This document shows positions 3,518 through 46,496 of a stretch of DNA of 64,000 nucleotides, piece by piece. A program made the translations under genes and the position numbers. Below the pieces are notes generated by a model that did not search any database, was not told the origin of the DNA, and saw nothing but the letters and a program-made list of their open reading frames with translations. Origin of the DNA: an uncultured Pseudobdellovibrionaceae bacterium (GTDB taxonomy: Bacteria; Pseudomonadota; Alphaproteobacteria; Micavibrionales; Micavibrionaceae); NCBI GenBank assembly GCA_964498755.1, contig CAZCIB010000005.1, positions 4,560-68,559 of the forward strand, in the 5' to 3' direction. Position 1 is the stretch's first letter, and the number at the start of each line of letters is the position of its first letter.

Positions 3518-3700
3518 AAAACCGCGAATGGACGCGAATGAACGCAAATAAAGCTGCGCGAAGCGCATTATATTTTAACCACTAAGAGCGCTAAGGACAC
3601 TAAGCGTTCCGGGCACAGTCTTCTTAGTGAGCTTAGCGCTCTTAGTGGTTATAAAAATTGCGCACTTCGTGCGCGGCATTCGCGTTCATTTGCGGTTAAA
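3518..3700. repeat. Three-tier nested palindrome (family C, most complete copy)
   Basis: Outer arms 3520-3549 / 3677-3697 (GCGAATG/GCAAATG words). GC mini-hairpins at 3553-3568 and 3658-3676. Inner ACTAAG-word arms 3577-3606 / 3622-3650 pair perfectly over 19 bp. Confidence 0.9.
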
Positions 3701-3869
3701 CAAACAAAACAACAACCAAAAAGCCGCAGTGAGCGATCCTATTCGCCGGCTGCGGTGTACCCGTGGGCACTGATGAAACCAACAGTGTCCGCTGAATTTG
3801 CATGGAAACTATGCGAAACGTTCCCATATGTCAAGGAATGTGTTTTGTTGTTAGTCATGCCCATGGACC

Positions 3870-3945
3870 GTCATTCCGGCGAAAGCCGGAATCTATAGGA
3901 CATCTAATTGATTCACTATGGATCCCGGCTTTCGCCGGGATGACG
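3870..3945. repeat. REPIN-like inverted doublet of GTCATTCCGGC-GAAA-GCCGGAATC hairpins (family A)
   Basis: GTCATTCCGGCGAAAGCCGGAATC at 3870-3893 faces GGATCCCGGCTTTCGCCGGGATGAC at 3920-3944. It lies just upstream of the dapF RBS. Confidence 0.85.
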
Positions 3946-3970
3946 TGTCAGGAGAAGAGCTGGAGGAGTA

Positions 3971-4921
3971 ATGAAATTCACAAAAATGCACGGGCTGTCG
4001 AACGATTTTATAATTGTCGATACGCGCTATAAGGGCGAGTTGCCGCCGAGGGAAACCATCGCCGCGCTCACGCACCGCAAGACCGGGATCGGCTGCGATC
4101 AGTTTATTCCCGTGTCCGCACCCAAAGACGACCGCGCGGATTGTTTTATGCGTATCCTGAACGCGCCGGATGCCTCTGAAGCCGAAGCCTGCGGTAATGC
4201 AACACGCTGCGTGGCCTCGATGCTGATGCGGGAAAAAGACACGGACCGCGTTATTATACAAACCGTCGCGGGGCTTTTGGAATGCCGCGCAAGGAACGCC
4301 GATAAAACGCTCATAGAGGTTGATATGGGCGTTCCCCGCCTGGAATGGAGCGAGTTTCCGTTAAGCGAGGCGTGCGATACGCTCTGGCTGCCGATTGATC
4401 TGGGGGATTTTGTCGCCGCCGGTCCCTCGCCCACTGCGCTAACGCTTTCACCTGGCAGTGAAAGCGAAGCTCCGTTGCCCTCTCCCACGGGGAGAGGGAG
4501 GGGCCCGGCGAAGCCCGAAGGGCGAAGACGGGAAGGTGAGGGGAGTCCCGCCGCCGTGAATATCGGCAACCCCCATTGCGTGTTCTTTGTCGACGATGCG
4601 CAGACATTTCCCGTCCGTGAAATCGGCCCGCAAATCGAACACCACCCGCTCTTCCCGCAAAAAACCAATGTGGAGTTCGCAACCGTAATCGACCGCGCCC
4701 ATATCCGCATGCGCGTCTGGGAGCGCGACACCGGCGAAACAGAGGCTTGTGGAAGCGCAGCTTGCGGCACGATGGCCGCCGCCGTCCGGCGCGGGCTCGT
4801 GGATCGGGAATGCGAGGTCATGCTCAATGGCGGCCCGCTGCAGTTTCACTGGCGCGAGGAAGACGGACATCTTCTGATGACCGGCCCGGTGGAATATGTG
4901 TTTTCAGGAGAAACTTCATAA
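3971..4921 (+). CDS. dapF: Diaminopimelate epimerase DapF carrying an in-frame ~41-codon repeat-derived insert
   Basis: MKFTKMHGLSNDFIIVD, CGNATRC and NIGNPHCVFFVDD...ACGSAACG are DapF signatures. It is 316 aa; the insert accounts for about 41 extra codons. Confidence 0.93.
   Translation: MKFTKMHGLSNDFIIVDTRYKGELPPRETIAALTHRKTGIGCDQFIPVSAPKDDRADCFMRILNAPDASEAEACGNATRCVASMLMREKDTDRVIIQTVAGLLECRARNADKTLIEVDMGVPRLEWSEFPLSEACDTLWLPIDLGDFVAAGPSPTALTLSPGSESEAPLPSPTGRGRGPAKPEGRRREGEGSPAAVNIGNPHCVFFVDDAQTFPVREIGPQIEHHPLFPQKTNVEFATVIDRAHIRMRVWERDTGETEACGSAACGTMAAAVRRGLVDRECEVMLNGGPLQFHWREEDGHLLMTGPVEYVFSGETS
4423..4545 (+). mobile_element. Family B nested palindromic element inserted in frame within dapF
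   Basis: TCCCTCGCCC...GCTAACGCTTTCAcctggcaGTGAAAGCGAAGCTCCGTTGCCCTCTCCCacggGGAGAGGGAGGGGCC...GGTGAGGGGA. It has the same core as 5856-6007 and 22216-22319. Translates as PSPTALTLSPGSESEAPLPSPTGRGRGPAKPEGRRREGEGS. Confidence 0.85.
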
Positions 4922-4926
4922 AAATT

Positions 4927-4962
4927 TTCCGGGAAGCGGGGGAGCTTCCCGGAAGTTTCGTT
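4927..4962 (+). terminator. Hairpin terminator candidate after dapF (between convergent genes)
   Basis: TTCCGGGAAGC-gggggа-like 6-nt loop-GCTTCCCGGAA forms a perfect 11-bp stem (4927-4937 / 4944-4954), followed by GTTTCGTT. Confidence 0.55.
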
Positions 4963-4993
4963 GGGTTGGAAAACAAAGCAGGCGTAAAAAAAC

Positions 4994-5308
4994 TCAATGC
5001 TGCGTGATCTGGGGTGCCGTGAGGGCATCCGCCGTAAAGGCGGGATTAAACGGCGCGTGGGCCATGGAGTCCTCCTCGTCTACGCCGCGTATATCAACGG
5101 CCTCGAAATCGCCAAAGCGTTTACGCGCCTCTTCCTTGATCACGTCAAGAAACTCGAGCACTTCGGCGAGCCGCGCGTCCCGGCAGGCCTCGCCGATGCC
5201 GGGCATGGCAAGATCGGTCTGAACGACAAGCGTCTTGACGGGCTTGAATCGTCCGCTGCCGACTTCTATGACATATAATTGTTTGATGCTGGGATGGTCG
5301 AAAGTCAT
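4994..5308 (-). CDS. Hypothetical protein (104 aa)
   Basis: The ORF has a strong SD (GAAGGAG, 8 nt before the ATG on the minus strand at 5309-5322). I recognise no family. Confidence 0.55.
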   Translation of the reverse strand: MTFDHPSIKQLYVIEVGSGRFKPVKTLVVQTDLAMPGIGEACRDARLAEVLEFLDVIKEEARKRFGDFEAVDIRGVDEEDSMAHAPFNPAFTADALTAPQITQH

Positions 5309-5498
5309 GAGAGGTGCTCCTTCACTGTTCTTTTAATCGATTAAATAAATTGTCTTGGCTTCTAATGTTTAAGATAGGTCTGAAATGGGATATTTTCAGG
5401 GCAGTTTTGTTACAGATTTGTAAGCATTAGAAAATGATCACATGAAGAAAACAGGGTAACAGGTTGACGTTTCGCCGGTATCGGGATATGTGTGCGCT

Positions 5499-6950
5499 AT
5501 GACAAACATAAAAAAATACGAACAAAGTTGCGAGCCTGAAAAACAGGGGCCGGAAATTGTCACGTTTGGCTGCCGCCTCAACATCTACGAGTCGGAGGTT
5601 ATGCGTGCGCACGCGCAGAATTCAGGGCTTGACGACGTTGTCATTTTCAATACCTGCGCCGTTACGAAAGAAGCCGAACGGCAGGCGCGGCAGGCCATTC
5701 GCAAGGCCCGGCGCGATCACCCGGAACGGAAAATTATCGTGACCGGCTGCGCGGCCCAGATCGATCCCGACGGCTTTGCGGGCATGAACGAGGTTGATTT
5801 TGTTGTAGGCAATGATTTGAAGTTGAAAGAAGAAGTATGGCAGGGCCTTGAGCGTCCCTCACCCTGTCCCTCACCCACTTTGCTAACGCTTTCATCTGAT
5901 GATGAAAGCGAAGCTCCGTTGCCCTCTCCCTTAAGGGAGAGGGAGGGGCCCGGCGAAGCATCGCGAAGCCGGGAGGGTGAGGGATCTGGTGAGGGACAGG
6001 GTGAGGGGCAAAACCGCCATGCGAAAATCCTCGTCAACGACATCATGTCCGTCCGTGAAACGGCCTCTCACCTGATCGAGGGGATGGAGGGCAGGGCGCG
6101 GGCATTTCTGCAGGTCCAGAACGGCTGCGATCACCGTTGCACCTTCTGCATTATCCCGTACGGGCGCGGCAATTCGCGCTCGGTTCCGATCGGGGAGATC
6201 GTTAAACAGGTCCGCGCTCTTGTTGAAAGCGGATATAAGGAAATCGTTTTCACGGGCGTTGACGTAACCTCTTACGGCCCGGATCTGCCCGGCGCGCCTA
6301 CGCTCGGGCAGATGATCCGGCGCGTTCTGGCGCTTGTGCCGGAACTGCCGCGCCTTCGTCTTTCCTCGCTCGACCCGGTGGAGATTGACGACGATCTCTG
6401 GCGGCTCATTGAAAATGAGCCGCGCCTGATGCCGCATCTCCATCTCTCGCTTCAGGCCGGGGACGATATGATCCTCAAGCGCATGAAGCGCAGACATCTG
6501 CGTCAGGACGTCATCGACATGTGCGAGCGGGCGCGCAGCTACCGCCCGGACATCGCCTTTGGCGCGGATATTATCGCGGGCTTTCCGACCGAGACCGAAG
6601 AGATGTTCCGCCGCTCTCTCGATATCGTCGAGGAATGCGCGCTCAGTTATCTGCATGTTTTCCCCTATTCGCCGCGCCCCGGCACGCCAGCCGCCAAAAT
6701 GCCGCAGGTTCCCGGCAATGTGCGTAAAGAGCGCGCCGCGAGACTGCGCGAGGCCGGGCGTGTTCAGCTTGAAAAGAACACGAGGGCGTATGTGGGACGG
6801 CGCGTCCAGGTCATCGTGGAAAAAGACGGTCAGGGGCGCACGGAGCATTTCGCCCAGGTTCAGCTTGATCAAAGCTTCGGGCAGGGTGCGCTTCTGGCGG
6901 CGGAAACAGTGGCCGCAGAAGGCGGGGTTCTGCTGGCGCAGTCGTTATAG
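5499..6950 (+). CDS. mtaB: tRNA methylthiotransferase MtaB (MiaB-like radical SAM) carrying an in-frame ~51-codon repeat-derived insert
   Basis: N-terminal MTTase domain (VTFGCRLNIYESE), radical-SAM CDHRCTFCIIPYGRG, and a TRAM-like C-terminus. dapF-mtaB-ftsY synteny. ATG at 5499; the ORF opens at GTG 5490. Confidence 0.88.
   Translation: MTNIKKYEQSCEPEKQGPEIVTFGCRLNIYESEVMRAHAQNSGLDDVVIFNTCAVTKEAERQARQAIRKARRDHPERKIIVTGCAAQIDPDGFAGMNEVDFVVGNDLKLKEEVWQGLERPSPCPSPTLLTLSSDDESEAPLPSPLREREGPGEASRSREGEGSGEGQGEGQNRHAKILVNDIMSVRETASHLIEGMEGRARAFLQVQNGCDHRCTFCIIPYGRGNSRSVPIGEIVKQVRALVESGYKEIVFTGVDVTSYGPDLPGAPTLGQMIRRVLALVPELPRLRLSSLDPVEIDDDLWRLIENEPRLMPHLHLSLQAGDDMILKRMKRRHLRQDVIDMCERARSYRPDIAFGADIIAGFPTETEEMFRRSLDIVEECALSYLHVFPYSPRPGTPAAKMPQVPGNVRKERAARLREAGRVQLEKNTRAYVGRRVQVIVEKDGQGRTEHFAQVQLDQSFGQGALLAAETVAAEGGVLLAQSL
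5856..6007 (+). mobile_element. Family B nested palindromic element inserted in frame within mtaB
   Basis: Perfect 20-bp terminal inverted repeat: CCCTCACCCTGTCCCTCACC (5856-5875) against GGTGAGGGACAGGGTGAGGG (5988-6007). Internal hairpins are GCTTTCAtctgatgaTGAAAGC and CCCTCTCCCttaaGGGAGAGGG. Confidence 0.9.
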
Positions 6951-10951: not shown

Positions 10952-11171
10952 GGGGAATCGCGTGAAGTTATGAAATATATCTGCTTAAGATATTGTTTAT
11001 AAATAATTGTCATCCCGAACGCGAAGCGGAGGGATCTGTGTAAAATGGATTCTACACAGATTTCTCGCAGCAGCCTGTCCCCGCGAAGGCGGGGGCTCGA
11101 AATGACAAACATATATAAATCAATGCATTAAAGGCTCTTTGCAAATATTCATAACTTCACGCGATTACCCC
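10952..11171. mobile_element. MITE-like element with ~27-bp terminal inverted repeats enclosing a family A doublet
   Basis: GGGGAATCGCGTGAAGTTATGAAATAT (10952-10978) against AATATTCATAACTTCACGCGATTACCCC (11144-11171). CCGGATACA is present near both ends (10937-10945, 11170-11178). Confidence 0.65.
11009..11106. repeat. Family A hairpin doublet (inside the MITE-like element)
   Basis: GTCATCCCGAACGCGAAGCGGAGGGATC ... GTCCCCGCGAAGGCGGGGGCTCGAAATGAC. Confidence 0.7.
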
Positions 11172-18489: not shown

Positions 18490-18677
18490 TAGCCGCGCGT
18501 CTTGCGCGCTATTCTTTAACCACAAAGTCACAAAGAACACAAAGATGAAGGGAAGAAAATTGCGCGCAGCGCAAAAAGCCCTGTCGGCCCGATTTGCTAA
18601 TGTCATTGTTATTTAAGCGCGCTTCACGCGGGCAAAAGAACTTTGTGCCCTTTGTGGCTTTGTGACTTTGTGGTTCA
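18490..18677. repeat. Family C element, ACAAAG-word variant
   Basis: AACCACAAAGTCACAAAGAACACAAAG (18518-18544) faces CTTTGTGCCCTTTGTGGCTTTGTGACTTTGTGGTT (18641-18675); the first 18 nt are exactly complementary. GC mini-hairpins at 18493-18509, 18561-18575 and 18616-18632. Confidence 0.85.
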
Positions 18678-21769: not shown

Positions 21770-22074
21770 ACTTCTCTCTTTTCGGTTTGTGTGGTTGATA
21801 TCAAGTCTACCGCTTTTACTCTTTCGGGACGACATCGGCCTGCGCGCTCTGTTATCAACAAGCGAACGGATTGGCGCCTCCCTCCATCTGATATCCGGCT
21901 TATTTCTGGCGGCTGTTCAAAGCGTATGTCTCCCTGTCTTCCGGTTCTCTTCGGGAGCAAAATATCGCCGCATTTCAATGCCGGTAACTCAAGATGTGAG
22001 AACGAACATAGCGCAGAATTCGTAAAAATTCAAGTTCTTATTTCGGAAATATGAAATTGGGTGTGAATATCAGA

Positions 22075-22208
22075 TGCGAGTTGTGAGTTGCGAGTTGTGA
22101 GTTGTGAGTAGCGAGTAGCGAGTAGCGAGTAGCGAGTAGCGAGTAGCGAGTAGCGAGTAGCGAGTTGTGAGTGGTGAGAAGCGAGTAGTGAGTTGTGAGT
22201 TGTGAGTG
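22075..22208. repeat. Heptanucleotide microsatellite (~19 units of GAGTTGT / GAGTAGC) forming the expanded left arm of a family C element
   Basis: Read directly: gcgagtt gtgagtt gcgagtt gtgagtt gtgagta (gcgagta)x6 gcgagtt gtgagtg ... The short complementary arm CAACTCCCAACTCACAACTCACAACTAC is at 22320-22347. Confidence 0.9.
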
Positions 22209-22215
22209 GACAGAA

Positions 22216-22319
22216 CCCCTCACCCACTTCGCTACCGTTTTCCCGTAGAAAAACGAAGCTCCGTTGCCCTCTCCCTAGGGAGAGGGAGGGCCCCATGCGT
22301 AGCATGGGAGGGCGAGGGG
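22216..22319. repeat. Family B nested palindromic element, intergenic copy
   Basis: CCCCTCACCCACTTCGCTACCGTTTTCccgtaGAAAAACGAAGCTCCGTTGCCCTCTCCCtaGGGAGAGGGAGGGCCCCATGCgtaGCATGGGAGGGCGAGGGG. Confidence 0.85.
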
Positions 22320-22343
22320 CAACTCCCAACTCACAACTCACAA

Positions 22344-25244
22344 CTACCCCGTAAACCCGACATGATGCGTGATCGCGGAAGAGACATCCTGAATCATGCG
22401 GTGCATTTTCACGAGCGGGTCGAAAATCCGCGTCTGTTCCTCGGCGTAGATTTCCTTTTCCTCGGCGCTGTAATCGGAGGCTTCGCCGTAATCGGCGGAC
22501 GCGCTCTCATCCGGATGGACCGGAAAAATTTCGCGTAAAAGAATATCGGCCGCCGGGATGTTCAGCTTGTAGACCTGTTTTAAAAGCTGGTTGCGCGAGA
22601 CGTCATGTTGCGGCGAATAATAAGGAATTTCCGTCGCCAGCAGGTAAATCTCCTGGATCAGGCAAAGCCGGACCGCGTGCAGGCAGGCCAGCGCCGTGTG
22701 TTCTTCTTCATTGCAAACGCCGGCGTCCGACTCAAAGCGCTTGAGAATGCTCATATCCGCGTAAATCTTGCGGAAAACGTGCTGGATGTCGACGGAGGGG
22801 CTGATGTGTTCCAGGATTTTGGCGACGCTGCCGCAGCGGCGCGCGTTAACGGGATCGCCGGCGTGCGATTCCCGGATCAGCCAGAACATCGGGTCGAGCG
22901 TATCAATATAGGCTTTCATCACGTCAGCCTGCGATTTGCAAGCCCCGAAGAGCGCGAGCCGCATCAGGGAGCGGAAGCGCGGCGAGTTTTCCTTCATAAA
23001 GCTGTAGAAGGCCGGGTCCGTGCGGACGGCGCTGCCAAGGCCTGAGAACGTATTCACCAGAACGCCCATCTGCGCGAGAACGGCGTTGTGCGGGATGGCC
23101 CGGTATTCGCGCGCCATTGGCGCCTTGTTCTCCGTTTTGGAATAATCGTATTGCCGTTTGGCGGCGCGGCTGCCTGTACCGCGCATGAGGTTCATGCCGA
23201 ACGCGGAGAGCAGGGAGCCGTATTGGGGGCTTTGCATCAGCTCGTCCTGAAACTCCTTGATAATGGTCAGGAATTCGGTAATGCCGGCGCGGTCCTCGTA
23301 ATAGGGATCGCCGGGTTTTTCCTGCGTTTCTTCTGTCCAGTAGCCCAGTATGCGCGTCAGCGCCGCCAGAGACGTTTCCTTTGACATGAAGTAAAGATAC
23401 CCGTCGCCGCCCTGGAAACTGCTTTCCTGGATATAGGGCATATTGCTCTCTTTCAGTTCGGCCAGGAAATGCGGCGGCGTCAGATATTCCATACGCGCGC
23501 GCATGCTCTCGGGATGGCCGCCGCGCCCTGAAGATTCCCCGTGCGTGTCAAAGCACAGCATGGCCGTATCATCCAGCTCGTATTTCACCATCAGTCTGGC
23601 GATACGCTCTTTTAAACGTTCAATAGAGCCCGACGCGGGCGTCTGCCCGATATAGCGGCCTGCGTCAGAGTAACCGGTTTGCAGGCACAGGCGTCCGCGC
23701 GCGCGGGCGTAACTGCGAAATTCAGGAACTTCCAGAAGATGATCGACGATCCGGCTCGCGCGCTTCAGGGCGCGTTCCGTTTCAAAGAGAGGGCAGATAT
23801 CGACGTGGTTTTCAATTCCGAAACGCCGCGCGTAATAAAGCGCGGACATCACCGTGAATGAACTTTCCGTTTCCGCGATCAGAAAGCGGACCGGCGTGTG
23901 GTTGTCAACATGCTGTATGATTTGCTGCATCAGCATGAACAGGCGGATCGCCGAGGCTTCTTCTTCAAGAATATTGCCAAAATGGATATTGCAGGGGCCG
24001 GCCTGGCGGAACTTGCTTAACAGCTTGTCCATATAGGTCTGGCGGAAGCGCGGGTCGGCGGGATGCGTGGTTAATTCGACATATTTGCGGATGGCGTTAT
24101 GGACCTGCGCGGCGTTGATCCTGAAATGGACATGCGCGCGGGATAAGCCGAAGTTTTCCAGCTGCGAGAGCAGTACCAGCAATTCAGTTTTGTCTTCTTC
24201 GTTTTTCGTCTTCTTGACGGCCTTCTCAATAACGTTGATGAGGGGGCCGGGACCAAGCATGCGCGCGTCCCGGCTTGCCATAAGCTCGCGCGAGGCGCGC
24301 TGTAACTTGGGGTGCCCCGGTTCGCGCTCGCCGTCATAAGCGGAAAAGAATTTGTGATGCTCGCGCAAGGGGCGCAGGCTGTTGTCCAGCAGATTCAGCG
24401 CTGGCGCCAGAGCGCTGTCCAGCGTTTCGGACTTTGCGCATAGCAGGGCCAGTTTATTGCGGTAGTATTCCGTCTGCTGGATTTGCAAATCGAGTTTCGC
24501 CGCGAATGTCGCCGTCCAGTTGATATCATTGCGGCCATCGAGGTCGAAGCCGACCCATGTCGCGATCGTGCAGAGCTTCGGGCGGATTTCCGTCCATCTG
24601 TCCGGATAGAGCTCCTGCGCGACGATGAACGCCGTTCTGTAGAGCGTTTCAACGCTGTCATGCAGGTTACCGATGGCCTCGTGCGAGAATTCTTCCTCAT
24701 CGCGCAGGGTCGGCGGCTCGAAATTTATTGCGGCGCTTTTGATCAGGTTGCTAGCGGCTTCGTCTTTTTCGTTCCCGGGCGCGGCGGCGTAATGCGCCAA
24801 TGCGCGGTTAAGCTCGCGAGTCATGCCGAATGTCGGATGCGCCGTAAACACGAAGCCGTAAAAGACCTGTGACAGCGCGGACTGAAACGTTTCAAAATCC
24901 CGTTTTGCGCCGTCATCGAATGCAAGGTTTTCAATGATATCGGATAGAGCCCCGGTATTTTTGCGCGCGTCCGTATCTCCAAGATAGCGGGCCAGCTTCT
25001 CGCCGCGCTTGATCAGGCCGTCTTGCGCCAGCTCTTCGGTTATCCGTTGCAGGTCATCCGTCGAGAGCTGTCCGCTGCGCAACTGGTCGTTCAAGTAAAG
25101 CGACAGGCGCAGGACCGGCGAAATAAAAGGATTGAGTTCCCGCCGCGCAAAATACTCGGCGTATTGCGTCTTGATTCCGTCGAGCAGGGCGGGCGCGGGT
25201 TCAGGGGATTGTTGTTTTATGGGCGTGACGCGTTCTTCGGACAT
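22344..25244 (-). CDS. ppc: Phosphoenolpyruvate carboxylase, divergent form
   Basis: 966 aa. FVFTAHPTF (compare VLTAHPTE), GFDLDGRND (compare GxDRDGNP), GYSDAGRYIG (compare GYSDSxKDAG), THGESSGRGGHP (compare FHGRGGxxGRGGxP), YRAIPHN (compare LRAIPW), and a C-terminal ...FTG. Confidence 0.7.
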   Translation of the reverse strand: MSEERVTPIKQQSPEPAPALLDGIKTQYAEYFARRELNPFISPVLRLSLYLNDQLRSGQLSTDDLQRITEELAQDGLIKRGEKLARYLGDTDARKNTGALSDIIENLAFDDGAKRDFETFQSALSQVFYGFVFTAHPTFGMTRELNRALAHYAAAPGNEKDEAASNLIKSAAINFEPPTLRDEEEFSHEAIGNLHDSVETLYRTAFIVAQELYPDRWTEIRPKLCTIATWVGFDLDGRNDINWTATFAAKLDLQIQQTEYYRNKLALLCAKSETLDSALAPALNLLDNSLRPLREHHKFFSAYDGEREPGHPKLQRASRELMASRDARMLGPGPLINVIEKAVKKTKNEEDKTELLVLLSQLENFGLSRAHVHFRINAAQVHNAIRKYVELTTHPADPRFRQTYMDKLLSKFRQAGPCNIHFGNILEEEASAIRLFMLMQQIIQHVDNHTPVRFLIAETESSFTVMSALYYARRFGIENHVDICPLFETERALKRASRIVDHLLEVPEFRSYARARGRLCLQTGYSDAGRYIGQTPASGSIERLKERIARLMVKYELDDTAMLCFDTHGESSGRGGHPESMRARMEYLTPPHFLAELKESNMPYIQESSFQGGDGYLYFMSKETSLAALTRILGYWTEETQEKPGDPYYEDRAGITEFLTIIKEFQDELMQSPQYGSLLSAFGMNLMRGTGSRAAKRQYDYSKTENKAPMAREYRAIPHNAVLAQMGVLVNTFSGLGSAVRTDPAFYSFMKENSPRFRSLMRLALFGACKSQADVMKAYIDTLDPMFWLIRESHAGDPVNARRCGSVAKILEHISPSVDIQHVFRKIYADMSILKRFESDAGVCNEEEHTALACLHAVRLCLIQEIYLLATEIPYYSPQHDVSRNQLLKQVYKLNIPAADILLREIFPVHPDESASADYGEASDYSAEEKEIYAEEQTRIFDPLVKMHRMIQDVSSAITHHVGFTG

Positions 25245-46335: not shown

Positions 46336-46496
46336 CCTCTCCCTTCAGGGAGAGGCAACGAGGCTTACCGTTTTCGAAGAAAACGTTAGCCGCAGTGGTG
46401 AGGGACAAGGCAATGGCGATATCCCTCACTCGCTCAGCTATAGCTTTGCCTTCGCCAAAGCGAAGCTTCGCTGCCCTCTCCCTGAAGGGAGAGGGA
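46336..46496. repeat. Two family B half-elements arranged head-to-head (a ~160-bp palindrome)
   Basis: 46336-46405 is the reverse orientation of the CCCTCAC...GCTAACG-hairpin-...CCTCTCCC-GGGAGAGG module. 46422-46496 is the same module in forward orientation. Confidence 0.8.

Follow-up and report, generated by a model that had tools for sequence, protein, structure and literature searches.

A palindromic repeat with BoxC/TMECO-type words lies in frame within the MtaB linker of an uncultured alphaproteobacterium

Rickettsia palindromic elements (RPEs; Ogata et al. 2000), as later accounts summarise them, are dispersed palindromic repeats of about 100–150 nt, nearly half of which lie in frame within housekeeping genes (PMC10969869, PMC3733652). 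Repeats of the BoxC/PIT/TMECO class carry an intrastrand triplex motif and are known from Proteobacteria, E. coli among them (Holder et al. 2015, PMC4666352); in E. coli MG1655 the TMECO copies are always intergenic, and neither a function nor a mobility gene is known for them (PMC4666352). A third class, the repetitive extragenic palindromes (REPs) tagged by GTAG or CGTC, is found inside the genes of several species, where the copies add 20–80 residues and are regarded as neutral passengers (Di Nocera et al. 2013, PMC3733652), and Micavibrio has been reported as a host of the CGTC-1 type (PMC3733652). Here we describe an element from a stretch of 64,000 nt (contig CAZCIB010000005.1 of assembly GCA_964498755.1, positions 4,560–68,559, forward strand; hereafter the window) of an uncultured Pseudobdellovibrionaceae bacterium, where it occupies positions 5856–6007 on the plus strand and lies in frame within the gene mtaB. 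The predatory genus Micavibrio is among the nearest named relatives of the host lineage. In-frame palindromic repeats that behave in the manner of RPEs are already known; what is new is an example outside Rickettsia, built from BoxC/TMECO words.

We consider it likely that the element is a non-autonomous, self-folding repeat which was inserted into the inter-domain linker of MtaB and is translated there as a tolerated, passive extension, much as RPEs are. To our knowledge, selfish repeats read in frame within working genes are textbook material only for Rickettsia. The case described here extends RPE-like behaviour to a different alphaproteobacterial lineage, with a word set whose E. coli copies have been reported from intergenic positions only. 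We found no description in the literature searched of this element or of in-frame repeats of the BoxC type.

The mtaB insert and its anatomy

The open reading frame (ORF) at 5490–6950 on the plus strand encodes 486 aa from a GTG at 5490, with an ATG at 5499 as a possible true start, and was identified as MtaB by its match to TIGR01579 (439 bits). mtaB is an essential tRNA-modification gene. The UPF0004 domain of the protein spans residues 23–107 and the Radical_SAM domain residues 208–378, and both the cluster cysteines and the CxxxCxxC motif are invariant in an alignment of 25 sequences. The insert corresponds to residues 123–173, between these two domains. In 82 of the 120 closest MtaB orthologues the equivalent segment is free of any insert and measures 14 aa, its sequence and length being conserved across all 82, against 69 aa in the window protein; relative to the modal orthologue the linker of the latter has 55 additional aa, and 54 relative to the nearest one (P0004, locus L036), in which the site is empty. 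The initial annotation of the window, made from its sequence, had proposed a dispersed repeat inserted in this linker, and the orthologue alignment bears it out. It put the element at about 51 codons; the 152 nt of 5856–6007 are not divisible into complete codons (152 mod 3 = 2), and the linker itself is extended by 54–55 aa. The encoded peptide is rich in Pro, Ser, Gly and Glu. An AlphaFold model computed with the orthologue alignment supplied gives residues 123–201 as coil at pLDDT values under 50 and models the two flanking domains confidently, and the insert peptide is accordingly predicted to form a disordered loop. A minus-strand ORF at 5717–6046 also spans the entire element.

The outermost feature of the element is an inverted repeat of 20 nt, CCCTCACCCTGTCCCTCACC (5856–5875) against GGTGAGGGACAGGGTGAGGG (5988–6007), complementary at 20 of 20 positions. 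The initial annotation took it for a 20-bp terminal inverted repeat; the exact pairing stands, its status as the element's end does not. The canonical repeat unit measures 116 nt (5868–5983, plus strand) and is bounded by the 9-nt arms CCCTCACCC (5868–5876) and GGGTGAGGG (5975–5983). These bounds recur in eight long-form copies of 84–116 nt from several genomes, and the arms common to copies reach only 9–10 nt. The outer 12 and 24 nt of the mtaB copy are local extensions of the arms beyond this shared unit: one extra left unit, CCCTCACCCTGT (5856–5867), which contributes the four codons of PSPC, and two extra right units, ATCTGGTGAGGG and ACAGGGTGAGGG (5984–6007), which encode SGEGQGEG. The only close relative found, locus L052 (metagenome read AACY023832030.1, 91% identical to window positions 4920–6349), lacks the left unit, seen as a 12-nt alignment gap, and carries the outer right units in degenerate form (GGTGAGATACAGGACGAGGG), which argues that the 20-nt repeat is a recent frame-preserving extension of the arms in the lineage of the window and not the terminus of the element. 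The arms consist of tandem words, as first described: CCCTCACC occurs twice on the left and three times on the right, and its nine occurrences in the window (1.06 expected) were reached in none of 100 shuffles. The word GGTGAGGG is found three times in the right arm region.

Between the arms lie three hairpins, the first two of which had been recognised from the start. Hairpin 1 (5887–5910) has a 10-bp stem (5887–5896/5901–5910) and a 4-nt loop, and is variable in sequence and conserved in pairing. Hairpin 2 (5922–5943), formed by CCCTCTCCCTT and AAGGGAGAGGG, reads CCCTCTCCC-TTAA-GGGAGAGGG; it is invariant in sequence with all nine pairs, and constitutes the BoxC/TMECO duplex block. The stem of hairpin 3 (5949–5973; CCCGGC...GCCGGG) appears in both the minimum free energy (MFE) structure and the consensus structure, and its inner sequence varies among copies. 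All three hairpins are given on the plus strand. The region 5850–6012 folds with −56.6 kcal/mol, compared with −27.6 kcal/mol for shuffled sequences (z = −9.1).

The repeat family and its relation to described elements

The window contains five copies of the repeat. The sister copy in dapF (gene 3971–4921, copy 4419–4543, plus strand) is 83% identical to the mtaB copy over 125 nt and shares its orientation and frame, both encoding the peptide SEAPLPSP, as the initial annotation had stated. It lies within a stretch of about 47 residues that is extra in the window DapF relative to three orthologues, and also to most of 14 others, so that it too is an insertion. A protein on public record (P0121, from an NCBI assembly; L097, from Logan run SRR7048223) is 100% identical to the window DapF (3971–4918). 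Two further sites named at the outset were recovered as well. At 22217–22318 (plus strand) an intergenic long-form copy is flanked by inverted arms of tandem 7-nt words, and at 46336–46496, where the neighbours are a gene for a CNNM/CorC transporter and, with its 3' end, secA, two intergenic short-form copies (arm, hairpin 1 and hairpin 2) stand in inverted arrangement, their hairpin-2 blocks forming a perfect 20-nt inverted pair. The left arm of the former site extends over 22072–22207 in words such as GAGTTGT, GAGTAGC and similar ones, which complement the right arm at 22319–22345 and include a perfect 17-nt pair; this word-wise growth of the arms is the same as that of the mtaB copy.

Beyond the window, copies were found at no fewer than 25 further loci in Micavibrio-like and other alphaproteobacterial metagenome-assembled genomes (MAGs) and in metagenomes; CAYOOP01, JACKJB01, JACKIU01, JANQRF01 and Ga0187893 are among the carriers. 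Among species-representative genomes 31 stretches matched the 20-nt core AAGCTYCGYTGCCCTCTCCC, and among metagenome contigs 59; most of these belong to MAGs of alphaproteobacteria with the label Rhodospirillales, Rickettsiales or Alphaproteobacteria. Core matches at L019, L021, L022, L047, L060, L075, L080, L092 and L095 lie in unrelated genes, have no hairpins and were excluded as chance. The long form has the order CCCTCACCC-ACTNCGCTAAC, hairpin 1, GAAGCTYCGTTG, CCCTCTCCC-loop-GGGAGAGGG, hairpin 3, GGGTGAGGG, and the short form terminates after hairpin 2. Nine long copies folded jointly with RNAalifold yield a four-way junction: its closing stem does not vary, nor does hairpin 2, and covariation is seen in hairpin 1. 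Across 66 distinct copies hairpin 1 has 34 different 5' arms, yet a stem of at least 5 bp is formed in 64 of them, and its mean MFE is −9.7 kcal/mol, where shuffles give −2.5 kcal/mol (Wilcoxon p = 2e-12); the early remark that this hairpin changes in sequence and stays a hairpin thus holds well beyond the copies on which it was made. Some 40 short-form copies, nearly all intergenic, come from metagenome contigs Ga0187893/Ga0187892 (loci L039–L093). Their left flank, (A/G)CACCGTAAC, is conserved and their hairpin 1 near-identical (GGCTTTTCC..GGAAAAGCC), and they look like a recent burst from a single master copy. Their distribution indicates that the frequency of in-gene copies varies strongly between genomes.

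Twelve in-gene copies were counted: three in MtaB, two in TrmD and one each in DapF, NadE, PDH E1beta, E2, Mfd, DHFR and an E1-like protein, the host genes in related genomes being confirmed by Pfam. Nearly all of them sit at domain boundaries, and in all twelve the frame of the host is kept and stops are absent. Five are read in the forward frame (signature EAPLPSP), which in related genomes is seen in mtaB of L001 and L052, NadE of L003 and PDH E1beta of L014. The other seven are read in reverse (SLSLxGEGNEAS): mtaB of L023, at the same site as in the window, the E2 acetyltransferase of L008, Mfd of L016, DHFR of L028, the E1-like protein of L031, and TrmD at one shared position in two MAGs (L024, 6734–6837; L005, 5544–5609). 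It holds, therefore, that genes use a single frame per orientation, EAPLPSP forward and GEGNEAS in reverse. Of the six frames of the mtaB copy, three have no stops (+0, which is used, −0 and −1), and the same number is open in the dapF copy. Read from the sequence, the conserved stop-prone boxes, with TAA/TAG in GCTAAC/GTTAGC and TGA in GGGTGAGGG, close the remaining frames to an extent that depends on hairpin length.

How does this family compare with the classes described above? Set beside the published summaries of RPEs, the resemblance is one of behaviour. Both are dispersed and palindromic, the RPEs at about 100–150 nt, our element with five copies in 64 kb, units of 84–116 nt and a strongly stable fold; both have a large share of their copies in frame within unrelated housekeeping genes, here mtaB, dapF and ten more in related genomes; in both the added peptide fits the fold of the host protein and the host is alphaproteobacterial. 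The hosts differ, since the closest relatives of the window's MtaB and DapF belong to MAGs labelled Micavibrio, Rhodospirillales or Alphaproteobacteria and not to Rickettsia. The element is moreover G+C-rich with CCCTC(A/T)CCC words, genes use it in both orientations, and one linker has been re-occupied in many lineages.

The likeness to TMECO, whose pattern is CCCTCNCCC-N3-6-GGGNGAGGG-N3-GGGNGAGGG (PMC4666352), lies in words and layout. Three 9-mers are shared, CCCTCTCCC, GGGAGAGGG and GGGTGAGGG (complement CCCTCACCC), and the element's 9-mers are present both in the E. coli TMECO table (PMC4666352) and in MG1655 DNA. Both strands of the element follow the order C-block, loop, G-block, loop, G-block, inverted pairs occur, and no mobility gene is associated. 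Judged by its letters, GGGTGAGGG laid against GGGAGAGGG gives only the allowed purine-motif triplets G*G-C, A*A-T and T*A-T. The strict TMECO pattern has no match in the window, whose element has a second loop of 31–45 nt with a hairpin in place of 3 nt; when loop 2 was widened to 20–45 nt, three matches appeared in the window, covering both strands of the mtaB copy. The strict pattern itself is present, in frame, in mtaB of L033 (683–716) and L035 (1925–1958) and in mfd of L016 (2665–2697). The element further differs from TMECO in an additional conserved box (ACTNCGCTAAC ... GAAGCTCCGTTG) and in its intragenic, in-frame copies in mtaB (5856–6007) and dapF (4419–4543), the E. coli copies being intergenic. 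A blastn comparison of the element with E. coli genomes gave no match, and the BoxC link is thus one of shared 9-mers and layout, not of alignable homology.

The resemblance to REPs extends to being small palindromic repeats inside genes with a passenger-like character. REPs are single hairpins of 20–40 nt with a tetranucleotide tag and a link to the REP-associated tyrosine transposase (RAYT), in contrast to our element, which has three hairpins and a closing stem in 95–152 nt and, across 66 copies, no consistent tag. [quoted passage not shown] The element is MITE-like in being short, dispersed and strongly structured, with inverted ends and no encoded transposase; against this assignment, its core inverted ends measure only 9–10 nt, no target-site duplication was seen and no parent insertion sequence is known. 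Rfam holds no family for the element and returned only two sub-threshold chance matches, near 3859–3956. A reading of the GCTAAC/GTTG boxes as integron attC sites was dropped because they do not fit RYYYAAC/GTTRRRY and have no integron context, as was a tRNA-like reading of the cloverleaf, which has no tRNA features.

Evolution of the insert and competing explanations

The orthologous copy at L052 stands at the same position of mtaB and is open as well; its presence in an independent data set means that the insert is not an artefact. Outside the insert (231 codons) the two MtaBs differ, by the Nei–Gojobori method, with dS 0.414 and dN 0.028 (dN/dS 0.067), so the gene has been under strong purifying selection while carrying the insert. 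Within the insert (48 codons) dS and dN are both 0.145, with dN/dS about 1.0: the insert peptide is unconstrained and drifts neutrally. Hairpin 1 differs between the two copies at 9 of 20 positions, eight of which fall into four base pairs. Three of these pairs remain paired through double compensatory changes (T-A to C-G, A-T to G-C, T-A to C-G), and the fourth has become T/T. The pair of sequences thus amounts to a clean natural experiment, in which the host gene is constrained, the peptide neutral and the hairpin still paired.

What course of events could have placed such a repeat in an essential gene? A repeat whose arms CCCTCACCC and GGGTGAGGG close a four-way junction of three hairpins would have landed in the inter-domain linker of MtaB, where it would be read as a floppy linker extension, tolerated rather than useful. 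The copies seen in genes would be the survivors of a filter that admits tolerant linkers, a frame-preserving length and either of the two frames that lack stops, a single one for each orientation. Once the repeat was in place, its arms may have grown by frame-preserving, palindrome-templated duplications of 12 nt, and the hairpins may have been kept paired either through selection on nucleic-acid structure or through template switching from arm to arm.

Several points weigh against this account. That the insert is translated is judged from conservation of the frame and the ORF. A profile of six forward-frame peptides found no match at E ≤ 0.1 among 5.8 billion proteins, an outcome probably due to the shortness and biased composition of the query. 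A Pfam scan of ten neighbouring ORFs of the window detected housekeeping genes only and no transposase or other mobility gene, RAYT included. No target-site duplication is visible, since no direct repeat flanks the copies, and the ends of the element cannot be fixed to the base, as no closely related empty site was found. Finally, synonymous divergence is lower in the insert than in the flanks (0.145 vs 0.41, with only five synonymous differences), and this, taken with the paired changes, could reflect selection on nucleic-acid structure in place, by which the element would not be a pure passenger.

The last point leads to the alternative that survives best, namely that the structure itself is functional and selected, whether as an mRNA fold that delays ribosomes between one domain and the other or as a triplex or junction in the DNA with an effect on replication or recombination. 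This possibility partly overlaps with the tolerated passenger that we prefer, and is less probable than the latter by a clear measure. It would account for hairpin-1 differences being concentrated in four base pairs, three of them still paired, for a synonymous divergence of the insert about one-third that of its flanks, for the very stable fold, and for the occupation of the same linker in many lineages. The counts, however, are small, and paired changes would also result, free of selection, from intrastrand template switching in quasi-palindromes or from gene conversion by another copy. Older in-gene copies decay, as in L034, where hairpin 1 is mismatched; most orthologues work without any insert; and no regulatory role has been seen for TMECO in E. 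coli (PMC4666352).

The occupation of the linker across lineages was scored in 118 MtaBs, the window protein and 117 of 120 listed matches, 13 of which have 11–57 extra residues at the site of the window insert. On neighbour-joining trees for which the insert was masked, the 13 sequences require 11 state changes, and 10–12 in each of 100 bootstrap replicates. By this comparison of sequences at least ten scattered lineages have related modules in the linker. Inserts with the orientation of the window copy are present in L001, L034 and L052 and one with the opposite orientation in L023; those of L033 and L035 are strict TMECO-type units, and other lineages have different G/C-rich words. Sites are re-used in DapF (P0227, P0236, P0180) and TrmD as well. 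The inserts of the three DapFs lie in the inter-domain loop and are of the PSP...GEG type, that of P0236 having the reverse-frame signature PSPSH..LPLPQGEG. No target-site motif was evident when filled sites were compared with the empty sites of L036 and L018, and the re-use of the MtaB site may reflect either targeting or mere tolerance. Its re-occupation in both orientations offers a tractable system for the study of repeat movement, and of linker tolerance as opposed to attraction.

A single ancient insertion, followed by many precise losses and by inversion or remodelling in place, could be invoked instead of repeated insertions at a hotspot. All insert-bearing MtaBs share the left flank W-x-x-[L/I]-x, often along with x-x-H-P-K on the right, from which an older common origin is possible for some of them; the window, L052, L001 and L034, whose copies have one orientation, are alike in their hairpin-1 cores (CTTTC..GAAAG), and short extra residues in P0067 and P0004 could be footprints of loss. 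We find this history doubtful, given the number of state changes that every bootstrap tree demands. Repeated deletions would not restore the conserved sequence and length of the linker in 82 sequences. The inserts also differ in orientation, reversed in L023, and in their modules, with strict TMECO in L033 and L035 and other words in P0005, P0030 and P0088.

A domesticated insert, whose peptide serves MtaB, for instance as a required flexible tether, is still less plausible and would make for a rather improbable case. Flexible Pro-rich linkers of lipoyl domains are functional in PDH E2 and E1beta, and it is in the lipoyl-domain linkers of these two proteins that copies lie in other genomes; the MtaB insert is likewise positioned exactly between domains and has been retained since the lineages of the window and L052 split. 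A dN/dS of about 1.0, against 0.07 in the flanks, is hard to reconcile with such service, as are a length that varies freely (the 12-nt indel), the predicted disorder and the insert-free state of most orthologues.

That the stretch escapes translation, either through excision from the mRNA or by being skipped by ribosomes, we regard as very improbable: the very stable local structure would suit it, but the host frame is kept without stops in 12 of 12 in-gene copies, later changes come in multiples of three (the 12-nt units), the orthologous copy of L052 is open, and no Rfam family is matched. Least probable of all is the proposal of the initial annotation that one orientation and frame alone is free of stops and that only such insertions survive in genes, which the identical orientation and frame of the two in-window gene copies and the conserved TAA of GCTAAC and TGA of GGGTGAGGG had made attractive, and which is refuted by six-frame translation, with three open frames in each of the two copies, an outcome that the annotation had itself named as refuting it, and by the seven confirmed reversed copies elsewhere, in mtaB at the same site (L023), E2, Mfd, DHFR, the E1-like protein and twice in TrmD.

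A broader and more tentative possibility is that the inter-domain linkers of housekeeping enzymes in this alphaproteobacterial group (MtaB, DapF, TrmD, PDH E1beta and E2, NadE, Mfd and DHFR) are repeatedly written and rewritten by self-folding BoxC/TMECO-type repeats which, as paired substitutions, a depressed synonymous rate and symmetric growth of the arms suggest, retain their nucleic-acid structure within coding sequence. If true, structure-dependent copying or repair, or a selected mRNA or DNA structure, would be at work within essential genes, and the long-unexplained BoxC/TMECO repeats would gain a visible part in evolution, as suppliers of new linkers to proteins. For annotation, the repeat accounts for odd low-complexity stretches rich in PSP...GEG within conserved enzymes.

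Other repeats and an extended ribosomal protein in the window

Further inverted repeats are present in the window apart from the family described. Just upstream of dapF, at 3869–3945, a 30-nt inverted pair (CGTCATTCCGGCGAAAGCCGGAATC... / ...GATGACG) looks like a head-to-head dimer of CGTC-tagged REPs, with an 8-bp stem starting in AT and a 4-nt loop, of the type reported from Micavibrio (PMC3733652); the sub-threshold Rfam matches to snoZ266 and mir-205 at this place are surely chance. The spacer before dapF also contains, at 3573–3654, a 32-nt inverted repeat of CTAAG-like words, 91% complementary and with a separation of 18 nt. A perfect 18-nt inverted pair of CACAAAG-type words (18518–18535 / 18658–18675) lies 122 nt apart, and a 23-nt pair of 96% (10952–10974 / 11148–11170) is separated by 173 nt; these two probably belong to other repeat families. 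The rpsP ORF on the minus strand (1008–1580) encodes 191 aa, of which only residues 9–70 form the S16 domain, the remainder including a long C-terminal tail.

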